Positions 66-62,411 of a DNA stretch of 62,411 nucleotides are shown here, in pieces. The notes under the pieces are model-generated. The model did no database searches and was not told the origin of the DNA. It was given only the letters and a program-made list of their open reading frames with translations. Made by a program: the position numbers and the translations under genes. Within the stretch, counting starts at the first letter, position 1; every line of letters starts with the position of its first letter. The DNA is from an uncultured Anaerolineaceae bacterium (GTDB lineage: Bacteria; Chloroflexota; Limnocylindria; Limnocylindrales; CSP1-4): the NCBI GenBank assembly GCA_964513505.1, contig CAZENL010000004.1, forward strand, positions 1-62,411, given 5' to 3'.

Positions 66-434
66 TCAGGCCGGCGAGAAGACGCCCTCGCGGAGCCAGC
101 CATGCCAACCACACCCGGCATATTTTTCCGCCGGGTTCTCTGGATTGTGTGAAAGGCAGTTGATCGAGGGATGCAGCGTGGGCTTTTCGATATTGCCATC
201 CCAAGCCCAGACCTTGTTCTCGGGCGGCTTCTTTCCGTTGACGATCCAGATCGAGCCGCAGTTTCCATGCCCGAGCGGGCAACCGAAATTGAAGCGCCCG
301 CGCTGGCCTGGCGCCGGCGGAGCTGCCGCGCTCTGCCCCATAGTCTCGAAACGGAACTCGCCCGGAGCTCGCGGGAATGGCGTCATCACCGGATGCCCGG
401 GATCGAGAGCAATATGTTTTCCCTCGACGCTCAT
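66..434 (-). CDS. DUF6527-like Cys/His protein
   Basis: Start moved to MSVEGK (ATGA overlap at 431-434). Motifs FGCP..GNCG, WAWDGNIEKPTLHPSI, CGWHGWLREG. Confidence 0.7.
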   Translation of the reverse strand: MSVEGKHIALDPGHPVMTPFPRAPGEFRFETMGQSAAAPPAPGQRGRFNFGCPLGHGNCGSIWIVNGKKPPENKVWAWDGNIEKPTLHPSINCLSHNPENPAEKYAGCGWHGWLREGVFSPA

Positions 435-1585
435 GCCGCGATCAGCTTCCGCAGCTCGGGCCCACAATGCACATCGACGACAAGGTGGATGCGCTCCACA
501 TCGGATGGATTGACCACCGCATGAGGCTTGCGGGTGTCGATATAGCAGAGCGTCCCTTGCGGGAAGTGGAGCTGCCATTCCCGCCCATCGAGCGCCCAGG
601 AGCGGAAGACGCAGCGCGGATCGGTGACGATCGGGATATGCAGCCGGGCGATCTGGCCATCCTTGGTCCCGGCCTCGGGATCGGTGATATCGCTATGGCG
701 GGTGAGCTCGCCATTGCCGGCGGCCAGGCGCATGAAGCGCACGCGCTGCTTCTTGCCGGGGATGCGATCGACCAGCGCCATGGTGCTGACCATGATCTGC
801 CCGAGCGCCGTCAAGCCGCACTCGGCCTTCATGCGCTCCGGGTTCTTGGCCTTCCAGTCTTTCGACATTTCGGAGGGCTTGATGATGAAGCTGGTATCGG
901 ATGGATCGAAGCCGGCCAGGGCGAAGCTCGTCCAGCTCTTGCGCTTGTTGTAGCTGGAATAATGCTGAGCCCACCGGCCGCTCTCGATGTGGTCGAGCTC
1001 GCGCCGCACGCCGGCGAGATCTTCGGGGCTGGCGGCGCCATCGCCGCGGAGGCTGATCACCTTGATGCCGGGCACATCGGCCGGATCGAGCTGCTCGATG
1101 ACCGGCGGCGGCCCAAACCACCAAAGGCCCTTTAAGTCCGAGCTGGCGGCGATCTTCGTCATGGCGCGCCGGAAGCCCATGGTTTCGAGAAGCAGGCACA
1201 GCGCCGGGTTCTCGACATGGCCCTCCAGCCAGGCGCGCTTCGCGCCGGAGCGCTCGATCAGGGTGTTGATGATCTTCCGCTTCCCGCCAGGCGAGCCGGC
1301 GATCGAGCGGATGAAAAGATCGCCAGCCTCGATCTTGGCGACGCGGCCGGCGAAATCGGTGTGGCTGGAGCCGATCGTATGGTGGCGAAACATGGCGATC
1401 GCTTCGAGCTTGCCGTCGATCGCCGTCCACATGAGCTGCCCGGCCGCCCTGGCATCGGCGACGTCACGCTCTTTCGGCAGGCCGAAGGCGCCGTAGCAAT
1501 GGGCTTTGAACTCGGCGCGGTAGAGCGCGGCCGCTTCCTTGAGGAAGCTCATGGGAAATCCGCGGGACCATTCCGGCGCCGTCAT
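431..1585 (-). CDS. GNAT-like domain fused to Asp/Asn beta-hydroxylase-like 2OG-Fe(II) oxygenase
   Basis: N-half AWLEGHVENPALCLLLETMGFR fits the GNAT beta5-alpha4 end. C-half has RVRFMRL, HSD, RLHIPIVT and IDTRKPHAVVN..RIHLVVD (HxD...H jelly-roll). Confidence 0.7.
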   Translation of the reverse strand: MTAPEWSRGFPMSFLKEAAALYRAEFKAHCYGAFGLPKERDVADARAAGQLMWTAIDGKLEAIAMFRHHTIGSSHTDFAGRVAKIEAGDLFIRSIAGSPGGKRKIINTLIERSGAKRAWLEGHVENPALCLLLETMGFRRAMTKIAASSDLKGLWWFGPPPVIEQLDPADVPGIKVISLRGDGAASPEDLAGVRRELDHIESGRWAQHYSSYNKRKSWTSFALAGFDPSDTSFIIKPSEMSKDWKAKNPERMKAECGLTALGQIMVSTMALVDRIPGKKQRVRFMRLAAGNGELTRHSDITDPEAGTKDGQIARLHIPIVTDPRCVFRSWALDGREWQLHFPQGTLCYIDTRKPHAVVNPSDVERIHLVVDVHCGPELRKLIAA

Positions 1586-1586
1586 G

Positions 1587-1796
1587 TCAGCCGATATCGA
1601 TATCGGCGCGAGAGAGCATGTAGATCAAAAGGAGCAAGCAGATGAGCAGGATCGCCAAGAAGGCGACCGCGACCCATCCGGCGGTCCACCACCAATTCAG
1701 TCCGAAAACATGATGGGCCAACCAGCCGACGAAGCCGAGGAGTCCGGCGATGAGGGCCGCGCTGGTGATTTGAAATCCGAGAGTTTGCCAGTCCAT
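1587..1796 (-). CDS. small two-TM membrane protein
   Basis: Start MDWQTLG; two hydrophobic stretches; fills the gap between neighbours. Confidence 0.55.
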   Translation of the reverse strand: MDWQTLGFQITSAALIAGLLGFVGWLAHHVFGLNWWWTAGWVAVAFLAILLICLLLLIYMLSRADIDIG

Positions 1797-1828
1797 GAGC
1801 CACGCCCCCTTGATGCCGAGGCTCAGCT

Positions 1829-2569
1829 TTACACCGCCGGCGGCCGATCGCCCAGCACATTCCACATGAGCCGGCGGCCGCGCCCGCGCGCCATGAGCTG
1901 CTCCCATGCTTTGCGATCGTAGTTTCCGCAGCTCGGGAACGGGGAGCTGGCCGGCGTCTCCTCCGCGAAATCATAGGGGCAGGGCACCAGCTCGACGTTT
2001 GGCGGGAAGGCCTGCTTCTGATTCCGGCTGGCCAGCCCGACAGTCACGCCAAAGACCCGGCTCTGGGGGAAGGCCCGGCCGAGGCAGCGCGCCAGCATCC
2101 CCGAGCCCGTCGCGCACCAAACCTCGTCCACCGGCCCAGCCTGAGCGGCCACCCGGGCCATGACCGCCTCGAAGGGGCTGGTGGCGCCGGGGATATCGAA
2201 GCCCAGCGGCAGGAAGAGCGCGCCAGCCTGGGCGGCATAAGACCGGGCCCGGTGCTGGACAACGCTCATGCGGCCGGCCGGGACTTGGAAGAGCGTCGCG
2301 CCATTGCGGAAGGCCGCCTTCTGGCGCCAGTGGAATTCCTTGCGCTTGGCATAAAACAGCGTGACGGCCACGCCCTTGCGGCGCCCATAGACCGAGAGCG
2401 CATAGGGCGCGCCGCCGCAAAATGGACCGCCGAAGACGATTTCCTTCGCGCCGGCGACGATGTGCGGGAGAAACCTGATCTTGGAGCCGCCGTCGAGCAA
2501 ATCCTCGCGGACAACCAGCACGCCGCCATGCTCCTCGATGATCGGAGCGGCTTCGTACCACTCAGGCAT
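1829..2569 (-). CDS. PLP-dependent fold-type II enzyme (ACC deaminase/D-Cys desulfhydrase-like)
   Basis: Start MPEWYE. VVREDLLDGGSKIR (Schiff-base Lys) and VWCATGSGML (phosphate loop). Confidence 0.7.
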   Translation of the reverse strand: MPEWYEAAPIIEEHGGVLVVREDLLDGGSKIRFLPHIVAGAKEIVFGGPFCGGAPYALSVYGRRKGVAVTLFYAKRKEFHWRQKAAFRNGATLFQVPAGRMSVVQHRARSYAAQAGALFLPLGFDIPGATSPFEAVMARVAAQAGPVDEVWCATGSGMLARCLGRAFPQSRVFGVTVGLASRNQKQAFPPNVELVPCPYDFAEETPASSPFPSCGNYDRKAWEQLMARGRGRRLMWNVLGDRPPAV

Positions 2570-2939
2570 TGCCGGCGGCTTCTGCCAGCGTGAGGAAGCT
2601 GCTCGGCCGAGCATTGTCGCGCTGCCGCTCCATCGCCAGCTTGCAACACTTTTCGAGCTGGACGAGGAGCTCCTCATGCTTGTCGATGCCGAGCTGCTCC
2701 TTCAGAGCGGCGTTCATCGCCTTGGTGCTGCGATCGATATCCTCCCGCGTCTCGCGGATGAGCTGGCGGCCGACGCCTGGCGGGAACAAGTGCTTGCACC
2801 CATCGCATTGCAGCGCCGCCGCCCAGCATCCTTCGGCCACATCGTATTCGGCGCCGAAGAGAACCTCGCCGCTGCCCTTGGTGATGACGAAATGGAGGAA
2901 CGCCTTGAGGTTGGCCTTCAGCGCGGCGGTGTCAGTCAT
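2562..2939 (-). CDS. hypothetical protein with CxxC
   Basis: Start MTDTAA, ATGA-coupled; contains CDGC. Confidence 0.6.
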   Translation of the reverse strand: MTDTAALKANLKAFLHFVITKGSGEVLFGAEYDVAEGCWAAALQCDGCKHLFPPGVGRQLIRETREDIDRSTKAMNAALKEQLGIDKHEELLVQLEKCCKLAMERQRDNARPSSFLTLAEAAGNA

Positions 2940-3133
2940 GTCGTCTTCCTTAAACGCTCGGCGGCATCGGCCGCAATCACTTCCGCATCGGTCGCGAGCT
3001 GGAGCCATCCTTCGGCCACGGATGGATAGGGCGTCTCGGCGGCGCGTTGCCGGCAGCGCTCAGCCAACAGGCCCATCCGCTCTGGAATGCCAGGGAGCGC
3101 GGCGCGGGCGGCGGCGAGATCGGCTTCGATCAA
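2936..3133 (-). CDS. hypothetical protein
   Basis: TTGA overlap upstream and ATGA overlap downstream. Confidence 0.55.
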   Translation of the reverse strand: MIEADLAAARAALPGIPERMGLLAERCRQRAAETPYPSVAEGWLQLATDAEVIAADAAERLRKTT

Positions 3134-4749
3134 GTTATCTCGCCCCCGATATCCTTGGCCGTCACCTTCTCGCCGAACTCGCCCGGGGGAGCTGCTGGCT
3201 CCATGCCTTCCGGCTCGCCGAACTCGACGGGCCCGATCGCCTCGGTGGCTTTGACAGGATCGCCCTTCACGAAGATCAGAACGTCTTGATGGGTCTTTCC
3301 CAGCTTGCGGCTCGTCTCGAAGGCCCGGCCGGCGCGCATGGCGAGAGAGCCGGCGCTGGTGACGAGGATCGCATGGTTGTAGAGGCGCAGCCCGGCCTCC
3401 TCGAAGGCCCTGATCGTGTCCATGTGGAAGCCGCGGTAAAGACCCTTCTCATCGCGAAGATCGCCGACAACGAAGATGGCGAAGCGATCGTCGGCCAGAA
3501 GCTCGCAGCTCGCCTCGATGATCTTGTTGTAGGCCGCGATGAACTTCCCATATTCCATCGTGCTCAGGTCTTTGGGATCGTCGCTGTAGCGCTCGAGATC
3601 GGAATATGGCGGGCAGGAGAAGATCAGGTCGGCCGGCATTCCCTTCGCGCCCTTAGTGAGCTGACCGATCTTGAGGCTATCGCCTTTGATCCATTCGGGC
3701 GCCGGCGCCTTGCACAGCTTCTTGCCCTGGGCGCGGTTGGCGGCGATCTGCTCTTCCCGAAGATCGACGCCCATGTAGCGGCGCCCGAGCTTGCTGGCGA
3801 CGATGCCGCGCACGGAGCCGCCGGCGAAGGGATCGAGCACCAGCCCCTTGGGCGGGCAAAACCAGCGATAAGCCAGCTCGGCCAGGACCGGATCGAAGAT
3901 CGAAGTGCCACCGCCTGACTCTTCGTTTTCTCCGCCAGGGCCTTGGCGATAGATGCTATTGGGACCGCCGCCGCCGGGCGTGGCATCGCGAGCCGCTGTA
4001 TCGGCCTTTTTATTGCCGAACTCCTTGAGCGCCTTCTGCTCTATCGCGTCATCATCGAGGCCGTCAGTGCGGCACTTCGCAACATAAGCCACGACATTTC
4101 GGTAATGACCGGGAATGACAAGGGCGAGACGATCTTGCAGTGACTTCTTGAGCAGGTTTCCGCCGCGGCCGACTTCGCTCTCGATCCCCAGCGCCAGCCA
4201 GGCGCGCTTCCGATCCTGCCACCAGCCTTCGCGGGCATTGAGCACGGAGAAGGGCACGGCGAAGAACTTGTCGGCGAGGTTGCCGATCGTCGGCTTGCGG
4301 CCATCGGTGGGCGCGGCCGGGGCGCCGCTGGAGAAGACATTGAGCTCGGCCAGCTCGAAGCCGGTCAGCGAAAGATCGAAGGCGGCGGTTTGCAGCTCGC
4401 CGAGCTCGGTGCGCAACAGGCCCTCGTCCCACCCGCCGCTGAGCGTGCTCTTGTTGTCCCAAAGCCGGTAGGCCTTAACCTGATCGGAGTTCCAGCCGCG
4501 CGCCACCAGCACCGGGACTTCCTCCATCGGCGGATCGAGCTGGGAGGCGGCGAAGCGGCGATGGCCGGCGATGATCCCGCCAAGCTCATCGACGAGGATC
4601 GGATACGTCCAGCCATATTCGTCGATCGCGCGCCGGGCCGCGAGGATATCGGCCTCGCTATGGGTGCGGGCGTTCTTGGCATAGGGCTTGATGCGCTCGA
4701 CGCCCCAGAGCTCGACCTTCGTCGCGGGCCAGTCCTTCGGATCGATCAT
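3130..4749 (-). CDS. ParB/Srx domain fused to amino (N4/N6)-type DNA methyltransferase with CPPY motif
   Basis: Start MIDPKDW. ParB: IKPYAKNARTH, YGWTYPILVD, IIAGHRR. MTase: VLDPFAGGSVRG (motif I), LIFSCPPY (motif IV). Confidence 0.85.
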   Translation of the reverse strand: MIDPKDWPATKVELWGVERIKPYAKNARTHSEADILAARRAIDEYGWTYPILVDELGGIIAGHRRFAASQLDPPMEEVPVLVARGWNSDQVKAYRLWDNKSTLSGGWDEGLLRTELGELQTAAFDLSLTGFELAELNVFSSGAPAAPTDGRKPTIGNLADKFFAVPFSVLNAREGWWQDRKRAWLALGIESEVGRGGNLLKKSLQDRLALVIPGHYRNVVAYVAKCRTDGLDDDAIEQKALKEFGNKKADTAARDATPGGGGPNSIYRQGPGGENEESGGGTSIFDPVLAELAYRWFCPPKGLVLDPFAGGSVRGIVASKLGRRYMGVDLREEQIAANRAQGKKLCKAPAPEWIKGDSLKIGQLTKGAKGMPADLIFSCPPYSDLERYSDDPKDLSTMEYGKFIAAYNKIIEASCELLADDRFAIFVVGDLRDEKGLYRGFHMDTIRAFEEAGLRLYNHAILVTSAGSLAMRAGRAFETSRKLGKTHQDVLIFVKGDPVKATEAIGPVEFGEPEGMEPAAPPGEFGEKVTAKDIGGEIT

Positions 4750-5006
4750 GGCTCGATCCCCGGCATCTTGGCGTGGTGGGTGAAATGGTTGGCCTTGTCC
4801 GTGATGGCGGCGATGGCGATCGGCGTCACGCCATAGAGCGGGTCGTTGGCCCAGCCCGTTCCAACCCAGCAATTATTCTTCGCATCCCAGCGCAGCACGA
4901 AGGCCCAGCCTTCAGCATTGAAGCCGAGCCATTGCCCGGGAGCGCCAGGCGGCGGGAGGCCGGGATCGATGCGATAACCGCCGGTCATCGAGCACATGCC
5001 GAGCAT
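4746..5006 (-). CDS. hypothetical protein
   Basis: Start MLGMCS after an RBS-like AAGAAGG; ATGA-coupled to the MTase. Confidence 0.55.
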   Translation of the reverse strand: MLGMCSMTGGYRIDPGLPPPGAPGQWLGFNAEGWAFVLRWDAKNNCWVGTGWANDPLYGVTPIAIAAITDKANHFTHHAKMPGIEP

Positions 5007-27555: not shown

Positions 27556-27762
27556 ATGAGCGGCCAGCAGACCGGCAAAGTGAAGTTTTTCAACGAGGCG
27601 AAGGCCTTCGGTTTCATCGCCCCCGATGGCGGCGGGAAGGATATCTTCGTGCACAAGACCGGTCTCGGCCGGGGCGTCGTTCTCACCGAAGGCCAGAAGG
27701 TGAGCTTCCGGACCGAGAGCGATCAGAAGGGCGTCAAGGCGGTTGACGTCGAGCTGGGCTGA
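27556..27762 (+). CDS. cspA: cold-shock domain protein (CspA family)
   Basis: TGKVKFFNEAKAFGFI (RNP1), DIFVH (RNP2), GQKVSF. Confidence 0.95.
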   Translation: MSGQQTGKVKFFNEAKAFGFIAPDGGGKDIFVHKTGLGRGVVLTEGQKVSFRTESDQKGVKAVDVELG

Positions 27763-27835
27763 AAAGAAAAAGGCGGCCGGGGATTAAGCCGGCCGCCAGT
27801 TAAGGGAGGAAACGCCCAGGAAGGGCGGCGGCTTC
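27763..27835 (-). ncRNA. alpha-r8/suhB (MmgR-like) small RNA
   Basis: Minus strand: hairpin CGCCC-UUCCU-GGGCG, then UUUCCUCCCU, UAACU, and terminator GGCGGCCGG-N8-CCGGCCGCC-UUUUU. 5' end is approximate. Confidence 0.75.
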
Positions 27836-57943: not shown

Positions 57944-58528
57944 CTAACCCATGAGCGCAATCGACTCTCGCGGAATCGAAATAGCACCTTTGCGCCCGAG
58001 CATGTCAAGCAGGATGCCGACCCGCTCCCGTCGATCGAAGGCGACGAGGCCGACCAATCCTTCGAGCGGCCCATCGATCACGCGGACGCGCGAGCCGGGT
58101 TTAAGCTGTTGTTTTTTCGGCGCGAGGAGCCGGAAGACGCCGCCAGAGGATGCCATCGCCTCCTTGAGGGCCGGAACGACCCGCGCCGGCAGGGCGAGCG
58201 GCGCCTTCGGTCGAAAGCGCCGGGCGATTTCCTCGCGGCTGGTCGGAATGCCGCTCGCTCGCTGGATGCCGAGGATCGTATGGACGCCCTTGAGCTGGAG
58301 GATTTTGGGCCAATCGTCCTCCGCATCCTCGGCGGCATCGAATTCGGCGAAGATGTAGCTGGGATAAAGCGGCCGCTGGACGATCGACTTCCGGCGGGCG
58401 TGGCTGATTTCCCGCTCCATGAGGGGGAGGAAGCTGCCGAAGCGCTGCTCTGGGATTTCGGCGATCGCTTGGCTGACTCTGGCCTCGTTGCCGGGAACGG
58501 TCTGGACAACATACCAAGCCCGCGCCAT
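57944..58528 (-). CDS. NusG/RfaH-family transcription antiterminator
   Basis: NGN domain WYVVQTVPGNE, PLYPSYIFAEF; KOW domain LKPGSRVRVIDGPLEGLVG. Confidence 0.9.
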   Translation of the reverse strand: MARAWYVVQTVPGNEARVSQAIAEIPEQRFGSFLPLMEREISHARRKSIVQRPLYPSYIFAEFDAAEDAEDDWPKILQLKGVHTILGIQRASGIPTSREEIARRFRPKAPLALPARVVPALKEAMASSGGVFRLLAPKKQQLKPGSRVRVIDGPLEGLVGLVAFDRRERVGILLDMLGRKGAISIPRESIALMG

Positions 58529-58847
58529 TCGTGCCTCAATCGATCAACCCCGGGCGGTTGTCGCACGGCTGGCGGCCGGCGGGCAAGTCGATCGATTGGG
58601 AAGGTGCCGGTCTTTCCCGGCTGTCAGACCGTCATCACGCTTTCTGCCGGCGCTCCGGCACCTGCCTCGGTCAGCGAGCTGGTTTCGAACCAGCAGATTA
58701 GTTGCCGGGCATTCCACCCAGCGGCGGCGATGATGGCCGCTCCACCCGCCTGCATGTCCAGGCGCGGCCCGTACCCGGGGCGCGGGGATACGATTGTCGA
58801 AAGTCTTGGCGGCCGGAGAATGCCGCGCGCCGTGGCCAGGCGCAAGC

Positions 58848-58878
58848 AAAAGGGGGCGCCCGATTGCCGAGCGCCCCC
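58848..58878 (-). terminator. intrinsic terminator in the late leader
   Basis: 8-bp GGGGGCGC/GCGCCCCC stem, then TTTT on the minus strand. Confidence 0.55.
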
Positions 58879-58974
58879 ACTTCTTCGCAGCCATGAGCGG
58901 GGGAAGCACCCCCCGGCGCCTTGCGGCGCAACAGCTCCTCTAACCGGGCCATCCTACTCCGCCGGCCGGAAATG

Positions 58975-59003
58975 AAAAGGCCCTGAGCATCGCCCAGGGC
59001 CTT
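58975..59003 (-). terminator. intrinsic terminator in the late leader
   Basis: AAGGCCCTG/CAGGGCCTT stem running into a T tract (..TTTTCATTT) on the minus strand. Confidence 0.6.
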
Positions 59004-59127
59004 CGCTTCATTCATCGGATGCTCACGGAGAAACGGTGGACCCGGGCGCATCTTTGCCCGGCATGAGGCCGGGACTTTGCTATCAGCGCAGGATCATGGC
59101 GGCCTCCTCTCGATCGAGGGAGCCAGC

Positions 59128-59307
59128 CTATCCGCCCAGCTCGGCAATCGCCAGATCGACGATATCCTGCCCGAAGCGGGCGATCAGGGAGCGCCGGGCC
59201 TGCCCGCCCCGGAATAGTCGCTGGATCAGGGCGATCCGGGCTGGGTAATGGGCGCGGAGCGCCGCTAGATGCCGCTCCTCCTCCAGCCATTCCCCAGAAA
59301 GCCCCAT
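59128..59307 (-). CDS. small hypothetical, first leftward gene
   Basis: GGAG RBS before MGLSGEW. Confidence 0.5.
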   Translation of the reverse strand: MGLSGEWLEEERHLAALRAHYPARIALIQRLFRGGQARRSLIARFGQDIVDLAIAELGG

Positions 59308-59400
59308 TTTCCGCTCCGACCGGCCCCGGCGACATAAAAGACCGGGGGGCTGAAAGATTAACACGAAAAGGGGCCATTACCCCAAGGGTTAGTCCGGGGA

Positions 59401-59428
59401 TTGCGACCACCGAGTAAAGACCTAGATT
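59401..59428 (+). promoter_or_regulatory. sigma70-like promoter of the right early operon
   Basis: TTGCGA-N16-TAGATT. Confidence 0.5.
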
Positions 59429-59477
59429 TTCAGGCTGAAGAGGCCCGATCCCCGGGCCTGATTCGAGAGGGCCTACC

Positions 59478-59657
59478 ATGCGAAAGATTTCCATCATCCT
59501 CGACGGCGGCGCCGGCGAGCTCGATCGCCGCGATATCGAAATCCCCAGCGCGGCGACTGGCGATCAGGCGGCCGAGGCCATCCGCGCCGCTGTAATCGAG
59601 CTTGCCGATTGCTCGATCCTCACGCCGGGCGACACGATCAAGATCGAGGAGGGCTGA
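59478..59657 (+). CDS. 59-aa hypothetical
   Basis: GAGAGG RBS; MRKISIILDGG...TIKIEEG. Confidence 0.6.
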   Translation: MRKISIILDGGAGELDRRDIEIPSAATGDQAAEAIRAAVIELADCSILTPGDTIKIEEG

Positions 59658-59660
59658 GCC

Positions 59661-59903
59661 ATGAAGGTGCGCCTTATCCAAATGATCGACGGCCAAATGG
59701 TGAAAAGCGAATTCGACAGCGCCGGCATGGTCGCGGCGATCGAGCTTCGCGGCTTCAAGCAGCGCGGCTTCAACAACCGCTCCGGGCAAATGCGCGAAGA
59801 GCTGCGGGGCTGGGCCACATTCGAGCGCCTTTGCGGCCCGATGTGGGATGGCGATGCCATCCGCTACGAGGACAAGGCCAGTTACGAGGCGCTTTCAACA
59901 TGA
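59661..59903 (+). CDS. hypothetical protein
   Basis: GGAGG RBS; tiles the operon. Confidence 0.65.
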   Translation: MKVRLIQMIDGQMVKSEFDSAGMVAAIELRGFKQRGFNNRSGQMREELRGWATFERLCGPMWDGDAIRYEDKASYEALST

Positions 59904-60112
59904 GCCGCGATCTTAGCGACAAGCAATTCCGCGAGGCTTTGAAGCGGAACGACTTCGGGCGGCCGATCCTCTTTTGGTGCGAGGACAAGAAGAACCCCGG
60001 CCATTCCTACGGGATGGTGGTCGGGAAAAGCGGCAAGCTCTACAAGCGCGAAACCATCGCGCATCTGCTGGCCAGCCGCAAAGCAACTGAGCTCGCGAAG
60101 GTGAAGCCATGA
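59900..60112 (+). CDS. hypothetical protein
   Basis: Start MSRDLS by ATGA overlap. Confidence 0.6.
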   Translation: MSRDLSDKQFREALKRNDFGRPILFWCEDKKNPGHSYGMVVGKSGKLYKRETIAHLLASRKATELAKVKP

Positions 60113-60318
60113 GCCAAGAGGACGCGAAAGACCTTGTGCATCAAGCGATGGTGGAGGCCACCAACCTCCTCGATCTTCTCGTCCGCGCCAATGTGGCGAA
60201 GACGGCCAAGGAGCGCACTGAGCTCATGGCGGGAAGCTCCAGCCGCGCGAGCAGGCTGGCCGAGGCGATCTATGCCGCCGAGGAAGCCGCCGCCGGCGCC
60301 GCCGGGGTGGCCGGATGA
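60109..60318 (+). CDS. hypothetical protein
   Basis: ATGA-coupled. Confidence 0.6.
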   Translation: MSQEDAKDLVHQAMVEATNLLDLLVRANVAKTAKERTELMAGSSSRASRLAEAIYAAEEAAAGAAGVAG

Positions 60319-60581
60319 GCAAGCCCATCCACCCCTCCGAGCTCGATGCGCGCCAGCGGATCGCCCGCGCCCAGAGCTTCTCGGTTTATCAATACCGCTA
60401 CCGGGCCCGCTACATGCGCGAAGGTTTCGGCTCGATCGCCGAGGCCGACGCCCATTCCAAAACGGTCGAAGCCGAATGGCCCGGCCGCCCGACGCTGATT
60501 TATGCGATGTGCGATGGCGTCGCTCTTCCCGTCCCTGCCGATCTGCGCGCGGCAGCTTCCGCGCAATCCTCGAAGGAATAG
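60315..60581 (+). CDS. hypothetical protein
   Basis: ATGA-coupled. Confidence 0.6.
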   Translation: MSKPIHPSELDARQRIARAQSFSVYQYRYRARYMREGFGSIAEADAHSKTVEAEWPGRPTLIYAMCDGVALPVPADLRAAASAQSSKE

Positions 60582-60585
60582 CCCC

Positions 60586-61032
60586 ATGAGAAAACTGCGC
60601 TTTGAAATTGAAGTCGATCTTGATGAGCTGCCGGCGCAAGAGCGCGCCGATCTGCTTCACAATTTGGGGGGAGCTGATAGCGAGCTCGGCACGATCGCCG
60701 ATATCGATATCAAGGAGCTCGGCGGCATGATCGCCTGCTCGATCGGCTGGGCTGAGGATTCCAAGGAGGCCGAATTCTGGGCCGGCTCGGATATGTTCGC
60801 CAAGTTCGCCGGCGTCAAGCTGGTGGGCGTCCGCGATATGGGCGCGATCGCGGCCGATCCGCGCTCGGCCTGGGGAACATGCGAGGCGCATCGGAACACT
60901 CTGGCGGCGCTCAAGGCGCTCCTGGCCGCGAAGCAGCATGGCAACGGGCTGGAAGCCTGGAACAAGATCACCGAGGCGGCGGAGCGCGCGATCGAGCAAT
61001 CCGAAGCGCTGCTCCCGAAGGCCACGCCATGA
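60586..61032 (+). CDS. hypothetical protein
   Basis: Start MRKLRF (AAGGA RBS). Confidence 0.6.
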   Translation: MRKLRFEIEVDLDELPAQERADLLHNLGGADSELGTIADIDIKELGGMIACSIGWAEDSKEAEFWAGSDMFAKFAGVKLVGVRDMGAIAADPRSAWGTCEAHRNTLAALKALLAAKQHGNGLEAWNKITEAAERAIEQSEALLPKATP

Positions 61033-61208
61033 GCCAGCTCGACACGCTCACGCACATCGTCCAGCGCCGCGAAACCGGCGGGGGCGGCGGCCAGTGGTGG
61101 CATACCATGGCCGCCTTCGATTGCGAGCCGGCGGCGATCGCCTATCTGGAGCGGATGCGGCCGCTCACCGCGGATTATCGCATCGAGCCGATCGAGGGGG
61201 CGAAATGA
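61029..61208 (+). CDS. hypothetical protein
   Basis: Start MSQLDT (ATGA). Confidence 0.55.
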   Translation: MSQLDTLTHIVQRRETGGGGGQWWHTMAAFDCEPAAIAYLERMRPLTADYRIEPIEGAK

Positions 61209-61429
61209 GCCAGCTCAAACTCTTCGTCTGGGACAATCCCTATCGCATCCCTTTCGGCGGCACGGTTTGCTTCGCCGTTGCCGAAAGCGTCGAGGCCGCC
61301 AAGGCTCAGCTTAAGGTGTCGGCCGGCTATTACGCCGGCATGGAAAGCCAAACGCCCCAGGAGAAGCTCGGCGATCCCGATCGAGTTCTCGATTTGCCGG
61401 CGGGGGAGTGGCATTCATGGAGCGAATGA
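61205..61429 (+). CDS. hypothetical protein
   Basis: Start MSQLKL (ATGA). Confidence 0.55.
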   Translation: MSQLKLFVWDNPYRIPFGGTVCFAVAESVEAAKAQLKVSAGYYAGMESQTPQEKLGDPDRVLDLPAGEWHSWSE

Positions 61430-61566
61430 CATGGCCAGAGAAGATCGAGGCGCGAGGCACTTTCAAGATCACATACATCGATCAGAAAGCCCTTTACCGC
61501 TTGATGCGAGCGGCGGGGTGGCGCGCTCTGGACGCCTGGAATTACGTCAAGGCGATGACGCCATGA
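61426..61566 (+). CDS. 46-aa hypothetical
   Basis: MTWPEKIEARG...VKAMTP; ATGA at both ends. Confidence 0.55.
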   Translation: MTWPEKIEARGTFKITYIDQKALYRLMRAAGWRALDAWNYVKAMTP

Positions 61567-62012
61567 CCCGCTACATCTTCCGATGCCAGAAGAAGGGCGG
61601 CTGCGGCAATGTCTGGGGCTTCGACTATGAGGAGCGCCGGGGGAAGAACTCTCCACCGACGCGCCTCTGGAAGCGGCCGAGCGATGGCGCCGAGATCCAG
61701 ATCGAGCCCGCCAGCGATCAGCGCGGCGGATGCCCGAAATGCGGGATCGGCGGCGTCCTTTCCAATCGGGTGGTGGGTGTCTTCTCCCATGCCGTGGGCT
61801 GCGATGCCCGATGCCGGGAGAGCGTCACCGGCAAATGCACTTGCGCCTGCGGCGGGGCCAATCATGGCTCGGCCTATATGCCCGCCAAGAAGGAGCCGAT
61901 CTGGGCTGAAACCGCTGGCAGGATCGCCGAGCTCCAAGCCGAGGGCCGCGCGATCGGCCGAGCCTTCGGCGATATGGCGGCCAAGGCTTGCGACCCAGCC
62001 GAAAAGACTTAG
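61563..62012 (+). CDS. Cys-rich (Zn-binding) protein
   Basis: CQKKGGC, CPKC, CDARC...CTCACGGANHG. Confidence 0.65.
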   Translation: MTRYIFRCQKKGGCGNVWGFDYEERRGKNSPPTRLWKRPSDGAEIQIEPASDQRGGCPKCGIGGVLSNRVVGVFSHAVGCDARCRESVTGKCTCACGGANHGSAYMPAKKEPIWAETAGRIAELQAEGRAIGRAFGDMAAKACDPAEKT

Positions 62013-62042
62013 ACCACCAACCACAAGAGGAGACTTTGCGAA

Positions 62043-62288
62043 ATGAAATTCCTTCTTTGCAGCTTCAACGACCTATGCCACGGCGCCGGCAATCTCGGGG
62101 CCAATCGGATCGGGCTCCAGCACGTTCCATTTACCGAAGATTCCATCATCCGCGCCGATGTGGTGGCGGTGCTCGGTTCCAACCGCGCGCTCATCCTGAA
62201 AAACAGGACAGGCCTGTTGGGCGTCGTTACCGGCGTAGCGAATGCGGCTGAGCTCACCGCTCTGATCGAGAGCGAGGCCTCGAAATGA
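62043..62288 (+). CDS. hypothetical protein
   Basis: AAGAGGAG RBS. Confidence 0.6.
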   Translation: MKFLLCSFNDLCHGAGNLGANRIGLQHVPFTEDSIIRADVVAVLGSNRALILKNRTGLLGVVTGVANAAELTALIESEASK

Positions 62289-62411
62289 AGCCGCTCGGCC
62301 GGCCGCCGGGACCTGGCGGCCCCTACAACCGCAAGAAGCCGAAGTCCGTCCGCGCCTGGGCGGTCATCACGGCAGACGAGAAGATCGATCCCAACCGGAT
62401 CAAGCTGCGCC
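62285..62411 (+). CDS. hypothetical protein running off the window end
   Basis: ATGA-coupled; no stop before 62411. Confidence 0.5.
   Translation, partial: MKPLGRPPGPGGPYNRKKPKSVRAWAVITADEKIDPNRIKLR

Follow-up and report, generated by a model that had tools for sequence, protein, structure and literature searches.

In modular theory, mosaic phage genomes carry morons, exchangeable cassettes held between conserved linkers. In phage lambda, the terminator tR' lies downstream of pR', and among NusG paralogs RfaH acts at ops and UpxY on the leader (5' untranslated region, UTR) of its own operon. LoaP uses a leader hairpin (PMC12691694), and a long attenuating leader before the capsid operon of an alphaproteobacterial gene transfer agent (BaGTA of Bartonella) is overcome by a processive antiterminator (bioRxiv 10.1101/2024.11.20.624540). 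Phages are also known to carry transfer-messenger RNA (tmRNA) genes, including two-piece forms: a survey found tmRNA in 2.3% of phage genomes, and 50 of its 53 two-piece cases came from marine or aquatic samples (PMC9004378). Here we analyze a non-coding gap, positions 58530-59127 of a 62,411-nt stretch of DNA (contig CAZENL010000004.1; the window), that lies between a 59-amino-acid (aa) open reading frame (ORF) and the gene of a NusG paralog. All features of the gap are read on the minus strand.

We propose that three independent modules make up the gap, namely tandem terminators, the remnant of a tmRNA gene and a late promoter, a reading that we hold to be probable though well short of certain. 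An original prediction from the sequence had described a single structured leader of 600 nt. This unity was not borne out: the T-loop, kink-turn and bistable domain all lie in an interior of ~180 nt that has no counterpart in relatives. The individual features listed are present on the minus strand, about 1-20 nt from where they had been placed (Table 1).

Results

The tmRNA slot in related phages

Contigs fetched via the NusG paralog, and then via the 59-aa ORF and the large terminase subunit TerL, provided eight comparison lineages. In five, the corresponding junction between early and packaging genes has a two-piece (permuted) tmRNA gene of the alphaproteobacterial kind, and in four of these (L004, L007, L088 and L091) the gene occupies the same slot, between the small ORF or the second terminator, T2, and nusG. 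L004 (NusG 80% identical) has both terminators, T1 and T2, a promoter-like element and a complete two-piece tmRNA (RF01849, 81.7 bits; RF04321, 82.8 bits; ARAGORN tag ANDNFVLADAATLKVAA). L088/L089 (59-aa ORF 76%) has a full tmRNA at 98.9 bits with tag ANDNVRMDQALAA, and L091 (TerL 77%) has T1, T2 and a tmRNA (RF04321, 65.2 bits). In L007 (NusG 54%) the contig end cuts the gene, leaving a partial 3' part at 28.4 bits, below the gathering score of 50. Our own translation gave the tags ANDNIDRAEALPIAA for L007 and ANDNFVRADVQALAA for L091. The fifth tmRNA lineage, L093 (TerL 61%), is rearranged: a tRNA-Met follows the tmRNA, lysis genes precede terS and no NusG gene was called. L005 (NusG 64%) holds 247 nt with a degenerate tRNA-like piece, and L090 (59-aa ORF 57%) and L092 (TerL 78%) have no insert, with nusG starting 56 and 67 nt after the preceding gene. 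Where the window has its cassette interior, relatives thus have a tmRNA gene (L004, L007, L088, L091) or nothing (L090, L092).

Pieces resembling the 5' half of a tRNA (GTAGCTCAG..AGAGC) follow the tmRNA in L004 (~780-810) and L088 (~3640-3665) and lie in the gap of L005 (~4915-4940). The tRNA-Met of L093 (3574-3649) is intact and directly adjoins the tmRNA. From these pieces and the L093 gene, the ancestral cargo may have been tmRNA plus tRNA-Met.

Putative remnant ends and interior of the window's cassette

Both ends of the cassette match these tmRNA genes. At the 5' end, 58811-58791 is identical in 21 of 21 nt to the pre-tmRNA leader of L091 (blastn E 2.5e-6) and in 13 nt to L004. At the 3' end, 58610-58597 shares 14 identical nt with the tmRNA 3' end of L007 (z 3.4) and 12 with that of L091 (z 5.3, 0/300 shuffles). 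The promoter-like element ahead of these ends is conserved in L004, where the tmRNA gene comes next. Caulobacter-type promoters have the consensus TTGACGS-N10-14-GCTANAWC, and by its likeness to this consensus the element is a candidate promoter.

Between the ends, the interior resembles nothing that we searched. Local and global alignment to the tmRNAs of L004, L088 and L091 gave z -1.0 to 2.2 at the widest (also -0.3 to -0.5 for local and -0.7 to 1.8 for global alignment), within the range of shuffles (tmRNA against tmRNA, the positive control, gave z 12.8), and an nhmmer profile from four phage tmRNAs gave no match. Phages, plasmids and the fetched loci likewise held no match to the interior, nor did Rfam at E<=10, and it is present only in runs that contain this phage. 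The 241-nt centre (58830-58590) folds no better than shuffles (z -0.45, 55/200 as good; stabilities are scored throughout against 200 dinucleotide shuffles). An alignment by eye of GGAGCGCCGGCAGAAA-GCG with AGCGGCGGCAACAACU-GCG, with CUGAC after the stop, was considered as a decayed tmRNA body and dropped, its scores lying within shuffle range.

Nor does the window copy retain the parts that define a tmRNA, for which we looked: after the T-arm, an acceptor 3' strand and ACCA, and farther downstream the AUAGGAUCGACG element and a 5' strand of the GGGG type with G3-U70. No tmRNA was found in the window at gathering score, none in 58200-59500 at E<=10, and ARAGORN called 0 genes; as positive controls, the tmRNAs of L004, L088 and L091 score above the gathering score, at the bit scores given above. 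A tRNA-like domain with acceptor and ACCA is missing: the T-arm-like hairpin at 58694-58678 is followed by UCGCUGACC, and the sequence holds neither a complementary acceptor 5' strand nor a GGAUCGAC motif. In L004, by contrast, CGCCUCC-ACCA pairs with GGGGGCG, followed by AAAUAGGAUCGACG. The window likewise lacks a tag frame, with no GCN-AAC-GAY, and GCG at 58640-58638 runs immediately into UGA UGA. Since the interior has neither tRNA-like domain nor tag frame, it cannot act as a tmRNA, and the window copy is at most a tmRNA remnant.

The structural elements that had drawn attention to this interior are present as sequence. The T-loop hairpin GCUGG-UUCGAAA-CCAGC was found at 58694-58678, one base from its predicted place, and its minimum-energy fold has 7 bp in the stem and 3 nt in the loop; neither an acceptor stem nor a D-arm accompanies it, and the gap yields no gene by ARAGORN and no family by Rfam. 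The pattern of a 5-bp stem and TTCRANN loop occurs five times in the window, four of them outside the gap, with 0.9 expected. In the domain at 58668-58595, CCGGCACCU can indeed pair either with AGGUGCCGG or locally as GCCGG-GAAAGA-CCGGC. This apparent bistability arises because there are four copies of the self-complementary GCCGG/CCGGC arm. The boxes proposed as kink-turn-like, GUGAUGA (58638-58632) and CUGA (58627-58624), do exist, 4 nt apart and within a single loop of the predicted fold; as no homologue of the interior was found, they show no conservation. A kink-turn would need helices on either side to bring RUGAUGA and CUGA together and an L7Ae-type binding protein, and a dedicated protein of this type is not known from Alphaproteobacteria.

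Two alleles in one metagenome

The cassette is polymorphic within run X2. A second branch at depth 3.5 has 162 other letters in place of ~212 nt (58600-58811), beside a window-type branch at depth 11.8, and the shared flanks lie at depth 12-16, about the sum of the two. The variant allele shares the promoter-like element up to ~58820. In runs X2 (L010) and X5 the contigs stop at 58599, breaks that the junction of the two alleles, a bubble in the assembly, explains. As read from the assemblies, the centre is a swap-prone cassette, here a putative tmRNA-gene shell around foreign or scrambled sequence. Another assembly of this phage gave a 54-kb contig, L009, that stops between T1 and T2, at 58960; the allele bubble, at 58600-58819, does not explain this break.

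Coding status and searches of the whole gap

That no credible ORF covers the gap, as the original prediction had stated, was confirmed on both strands. In real genes of this stretch, GC is 45-49% at the second codon position and 77-85% at the third; the candidate ORFs of the gap are flat, with 60-76% at all three positions and no codon periodicity. Small proteins of 117, 121, 73 and 43 aa were considered and rejected, showing neither periodicity nor frame conservation.

A search of Rfam, which had been suggested as a check, returned no family in the gap at gathering score or E<=10, its only matches being two by chance, Plastid-ycf2 and SNORA76. Blastn of the gap against phage and plasmid collections found no match. 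In IMG/VR, exact-pattern scans with two conserved 18-22-mers gave 2 chance matches and then 0, and the 31-nt core of the T1 motif described below gave 0; its 15-nt core gave at least 70 matches, all by chance and many of the Shine-Dalgarno (SD)-ATG-AAT-GA type in unrelated genes. Locus searches based on NusG in genome, viral and metagenome collections were uninformative, returning only canonical Spirochaetaceae NusG or paralogs of 30% identity with short upstream gaps.

Tandem terminators on the early side

The segment 59127-58841 aligns to L004 at 83% identity, comparable to its flanking genes (83-90%), and is predicted to be the terminated tail of the early rightward transcript, with two intrinsic terminators. 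T1 (-23.9 kcal/mol, z -4.5, 0/200 shuffles as good) and T2 (-25.8 kcal/mol, z -3.2, 1/200) each combine a GC-rich stem-loop, a directly adjoining U-tract and a stability beyond chance, as expected of intrinsic terminators. Both had been called from the sequence at the outset, and both hold up as strong hairpins whose stems are kept paired in relatives. In L004 and L091 the T1 stems differ and remain paired (UA/GC to CG/AU) with the U-tract kept, and different yet paired stems with U-tracts stand at the place corresponding to T2. T2 is also homologous to the terminator ahead of the L088 tmRNA promoter (z 3.5; 2/200 shuffles). The pairing in L004 and L091 was read by eye from aligned sequences, and with three lineages the apparent conservation of structure despite sequence change is support, not statistics. 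The comparison of homologous leaders that the original prediction had called for thus yields compensatory stem changes in the terminators; the interior has no homologue and hence none.

The 32-nt motif that leads into T1 has hardly changed between the window, L004 and L091, and the window has a single copy. It recurs in other contigs of four rhizosphere runs, with different flanks and a hairpin that is the contigs' own; since those flanks resemble L091, these contigs are most likely further relatives of the phage group. The arrangement GGGAG/GUGAG, 6-nt spacer, AUG AAU GAR... is found at 58998-59029 (-) in the window, 208-238 in L004, 4237-4268 in L091 and 3060-3083 in L088. The frame opened by this AUG (MN[ENK]xK[AG]) enters the 5' arm of T1 and is not conserved in length (9, 17, 29, 83 and 105 codons). 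A ribosome starting there would melt T1, so termination could depend on translation. We also considered 59028-59018 as a candidate antiterminator that would pair with T1 in its 3' half (10/11 bp) and rejected it, since the pairing is conserved in neither L004, L091 nor the other contigs.

Between the terminators, a GNRA hairpin, GCGCC-GCAA-GGCGC, is present at 58929-58916, the first of two twin hairpins (58932-58898; z -2.4, 5/200 shuffles as good). The second twin has two compensatory pairs relative to L004, and both are absent from L091, so this is not a conserved RNA; a small RNA in the T1-T2 interval was accordingly rejected despite the covariation with L004. Upstream of T1, the hairpin CCGGGC-AAAGAU-GCCCGG of the original prediction exists at 59062-59041 and competes with a better conserved hairpin at 59073-59057. 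The latter is identical in L004 and reads CCUGGC-CUCAC-GCCAGG in L091, with one compensatory pair (C-G to U-A); taken alone it is no stabler than shuffles (z -0.12). At the place matching the mini-ORF of the window, after the small ORF, L004 (~130-146) and L091 (~4147-4162) have GGAGG-N6-ATG-TGA, a start followed by a stop. L088 has a 16-codon, very basic mini-ORF (MRTNHIRKRASVKKKK) at 2943-2993, behind a strong GGAGG and between the first terminator and the tmRNA module.

The late block ahead of nusG

The last 70 nt of the gap are conserved whatever the slot contains. TTGNNNN-N14/15 and a -10-like box, 35-70 nt before the nusG ATG, align in seven lineages; the -10-like box itself varies among them. 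ATCGAT boxes flank the block in the window, L005 and L092 and are less exact in L004, and in L090 the block starts at the stop codon of the small ORF. The block presumably fits the Caulobacter-type promoter consensus and is a putative promoter of the nusG operon. The nusG 5' UTR would then be only ~20-30 nt, which argues against the 600 nt as a nusG leader. Scanning the coding strand of 58530-59127 for the Escherichia coli-type ops (GGCGGTAGnnTG) gave no match with up to two mismatches. If the NusG paralog has a loading site here, it more likely lies in these conserved 70 nt than in the structured domain, and a family-specific, non-ops element may sit in 58596-58529.

Table 1. Features of the gap and its two flanking genes, in the order of reading on the minus strand
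Feature	Positions	Strand	Sequence or parts	Remarks
Small conserved ORF	59307-59128	(-)	59 aa	last early-rightward gene ahead of the gap
SD-like site and mini-ORF	59109-59083	(-)	GAGGAGG; 4 codons, ATG ATC CTG CGC TGA	read from sequence
Upstream hairpin	59073-59057	(-)	CCCGGC-CUCAU-GCCGGG	conserved; excludes the 59062-59041 hairpin
T1 motif	59029-58998	(-)	32 nt, UCCGUGAGCAUCCGAUGAAUGAAGCGAAGGCC; SD-like GAG/GGGAG, 6-nt spacer, AUG	runs into T1
Terminator T1	59003-58968	(-)	12-13 bp stem, GAU loop, tail UUUUCAUUU	
Twin hairpins	58929-58898	(-)	GCGCC-GCAA-GGCGC and CGGGGGG-UGCU-UCCCCCG	between T1 and T2
Terminator T2	58878-58841	(-)	GGGGGCGCUCG-GCAAU-CGGGCGCCCCC then UUUUGCUUGCG; tail UUUUGCUU	found by terminator scan
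Promoter-like element	58845-58816	(-)	TTGCGCC, 15 nt, GCATTCTC	follows T2
5' tmRNA-precursor remnant (putative)	58811-58791	(-)	CGCCAAGACUUUCGACAAUCG	blastn against L091
Cassette interior	58790-58611	(-)	~180 nt; T-loop-like hairpin, GUGAUGA/CUGA boxes, most of the "bistable" domain	unique to this phage
3' remnant of tmRNA coding piece (putative)	58610-58597	(-)	CCGGCACCUUCCCA	3' arm of terminal hairpin and trailer
Late promoter/operator block (putative)	58596-58529	(-)	TTGCCCG (58586-58580), 15 nt, GCGACAAC (58564-58557); ATCGAT boxes (58596-58591, 58544-58539); GAGG; ATG (58528)	
NusG paralog	58528-57944	(-)		opens the operon of terS, terL, portal and the other structural genes

The phage genome and its flanking genes

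The window (64% G+C) appears to be a complete, circularly closed phage genome of ~63 kb assembled from rhizosphere metagenomes. Three genes at its start (431-4872, minus strand), for an Asp/Arg hydroxylase, a PALP enzyme and a DNA methylase, sit in the longer contig L008 (63.4 kb) upstream of the window's end (59478-62411), so the window closes on itself and would be circular or circularly permuted. DnaB, RecT, a ParB-HTH protein, tail genes, a Mu-type portal and TerL are each present in single copy, and no integrase was found among the window ORFs scanned. The relatives of TerL at 55-59% identity are prophages of Rhizobium, Agrobacterium, Mesorhizobium and Aminobacter, and from this kinship the host is probably a member of Hyphomicrobiales. 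At 27757-27833 (-) the window matches Rfam RF00519, the alphaproteobacterial small RNA suhB/mmgR, over its full length (58.7 bits against a gathering score of 41, E 1.6e-9); the phage may carry a copy of a regulatory small RNA of its host.

The 59-aa ORF has the codon usage of a real gene (78/47/78% GC by position) and no match in Pfam, PHROG or NCBIfam. In L088 and L090, homologues of 57-76% identity immediately precede the slot or nusG, and L005 has a 61-aa counterpart at the same place with which it shares the C-terminal motif ...RFGQD[IL]VDLAIAEL.G. On the other side, the NusG paralog matches Pfam NusG (2.3e-15) and the antiterminator family phrog_6386; against NCBIfam it scores 66.9 bits with RfaH, 58.8 with UpxY and 49.8 with LoaP, each under the cut-off of its family. 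NusG is its best match in the PDB, where it also matches RfaH, and it has few close homologues. In L091 (4940-5120) the nusG paralog has no in-frame ATG, GTG or TTG before the conserved RWY motif and only a 119-aa C-terminal ORF was called; the cause is a frameshift, an error of assembly or decay of the gene.

Discussion

In our proposal, transcription running past the 59-aa ORF would stop at T1 and T2, insulating the late operon, and a separate promoter that once drove a tmRNA would now drive, if anything, a remnant that is no tmRNA. The tmRNA body would have been lost or replaced, leaving ends of 21 nt and 12-14 nt around ~180 nt of unrelated GC-rich and presumably functionless sequence, most likely by recombination at the conserved flanking promoter blocks. 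The late block would drive nusG-terS-terL-portal from its own regulated promoter.

Several observations weigh against this proposal. The domain at 58668-58595 (z -3.1) and the T-loop-like hairpin (z -3.6) are each stabler than all 200 shuffles, which a remnant need not be. The promoter-like element of the cassette has also been kept, and no terminator stands between the cassette and nusG, so that cassette RNA would enter nusG as a leader of ~280 nt. The stretch was found in no RNA run, and the assignment of promoters, terminators and remnant is read from sequence. Lastly, all five contigs of this phage are identical across the region and so offer no variation by which to gauge selection on the interior.

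Some of these observations would equally suit a functional, independent phage small RNA of 212 nt, expressed from 58845-58816 and swapped in for the tmRNA. The promoter-like element is common to the tmRNA-bearing relatives, the slot's content varies by lineage with two alleles in one population, as exchangeable cargo predicts, and the stable hairpins would be its folded parts. We nonetheless think such an RNA unlikely: no homologue turned up in our searches, hence there is neither conservation nor covariation, the whole centre folds no better than shuffles, and the 3' end lacks a terminator. Moreover, the left breakpoint falls inside the tmRNA precursor with 21 nt of leader kept, which looks more like an accident than a clean gene exchange. 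Among the three options of the original prediction, an independent phage RNA nevertheless comes closest, because the 3' half has a promoter-like element of its own in the slot where relatives carry tmRNA; a cis-acting antitermination RNA and a NusG-paralog loading element fit less well. In their combined form the latter two would make the gap, or its 3' 280 nt, a cis-acting leader that loads the NusG paralog, which would then read through T1/T2 or later terminators. In its favour, the paralog opens a long operon whose genes share one strand, and its best scores are with the RfaH, UpxY and LoaP models, each under the cut-off; upstream stand two strong terminators, no terminator separates the cassette promoter from nusG, and the attenuating capsid-operon leader of BaGTA offers a parallel (bioRxiv 10.1101/2024.11.20.624540). 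A loading site should, however, be conserved with its protein, whereas the structured part is polymorphic and missing from every relative, and L090 and L092 lack a leader altogether. Given further that nusG has its own conserved promoter-like block and that the coding strand of the gap has no ops-like GGCGGTAG, we regard a leader as quite improbable; the candidate for any loading element is the 58596-58529 block, not the hairpin domain.

A DNA-level site without RNA function, either a pac/cos site near terS or a recombination hotspot, strikes us as very improbable indeed. The gap does lie just upstream of the terS-terL module, contains palindromic ATCGAT boxes and GCCGGC arms, has undergone a cassette swap and is where contig L009 ends. 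Against this, the allele bubble accounts for the breaks at 58599, assemblies from other samples run through, and the terminators and tmRNA synteny already cover most of the sequence. More speculatively, the slot could be dedicated to exchangeable RNA genes, with a conserved terminator and promoter module serving tmRNA, tmRNA plus tRNA-Met, or other cargo. The window's cargo, having shed its tRNA-like and tag parts, would then be a working tmRNA-derived regulatory RNA or a nusG leader that couples the cassette promoter to the late operon, and the conserved AUG leading into T1 would make T1 sensitive to translation; to this combination we give little credence.

If the composite of terminators, tmRNA remnant and late promoter is right, the T-loop, kink-turn and bistable domain would be GC-rich sequence of a single phage within the shell of a lost tmRNA gene, and not a conserved riboregulator. 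The relatives define a small rhizosphere phage clade, with TerL kin among Rhizobium, Agrobacterium and Mesorhizobium prophages, in which a two-piece tmRNA directly precedes a NusG-type late regulator, in contrast to the survey in which two-piece phage tmRNAs were almost only marine or aquatic (PMC9004378). Changes in slot content are visible both among these relatives and inside one metagenome. The late block and tandem terminators provide a defined starting point for testing the role of a phage NusG paralog. The novelty is modest: phage tmRNAs, two-piece ones included, were already described (PMC9004378), the window adds only a remnant, and the relatives add soil-phage two-piece tmRNAs beside a NusG-type regulator together with the cassette polymorphism.

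Comparison with known systems

Compared with two-piece tmRNA genes (RF01849, RF04321), the window copy shares the slot, the module of terminator and promoter ahead of it, and both end sequences (21 nt at the start, 12-14 nt at the finish). It differs in lacking a T-arm with acceptor and ACCA, a 5' end of the form GGGG...AUAGGAUCGACG, and a resume codon with its tag frame. Its tmRNA-bearing relatives resemble phage Melnitz, whose tmRNA immediately precedes the gene of a transcription factor (PMC9004378). With the RfaH, UpxY and LoaP leaders the locus has in common a NusG paralog that comes first in a long operon, with untranslated sequence and terminators upstream; here, however, there is no ops, the paralog scores below the family cut-offs, and the candidate leader is not conserved with orthologous paralogs and is absent from some lineages. 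Like lambda tR' and BaGTA, it has GC-rich terminators with U-tracts between an early unit and a late operon headed or controlled by an antiterminator-type protein, but the terminators lie upstream of the antiterminator-like gene and its promoter-like block, and the protein is a NusG paralog and not of the Q type. The locus also resembles a moron, with terminator, promoter and cargo between two conserved genes, cargo that varies in close relatives and two coexisting alleles, the difference being that the cargo here is an RNA gene or its remnant and not a protein gene.

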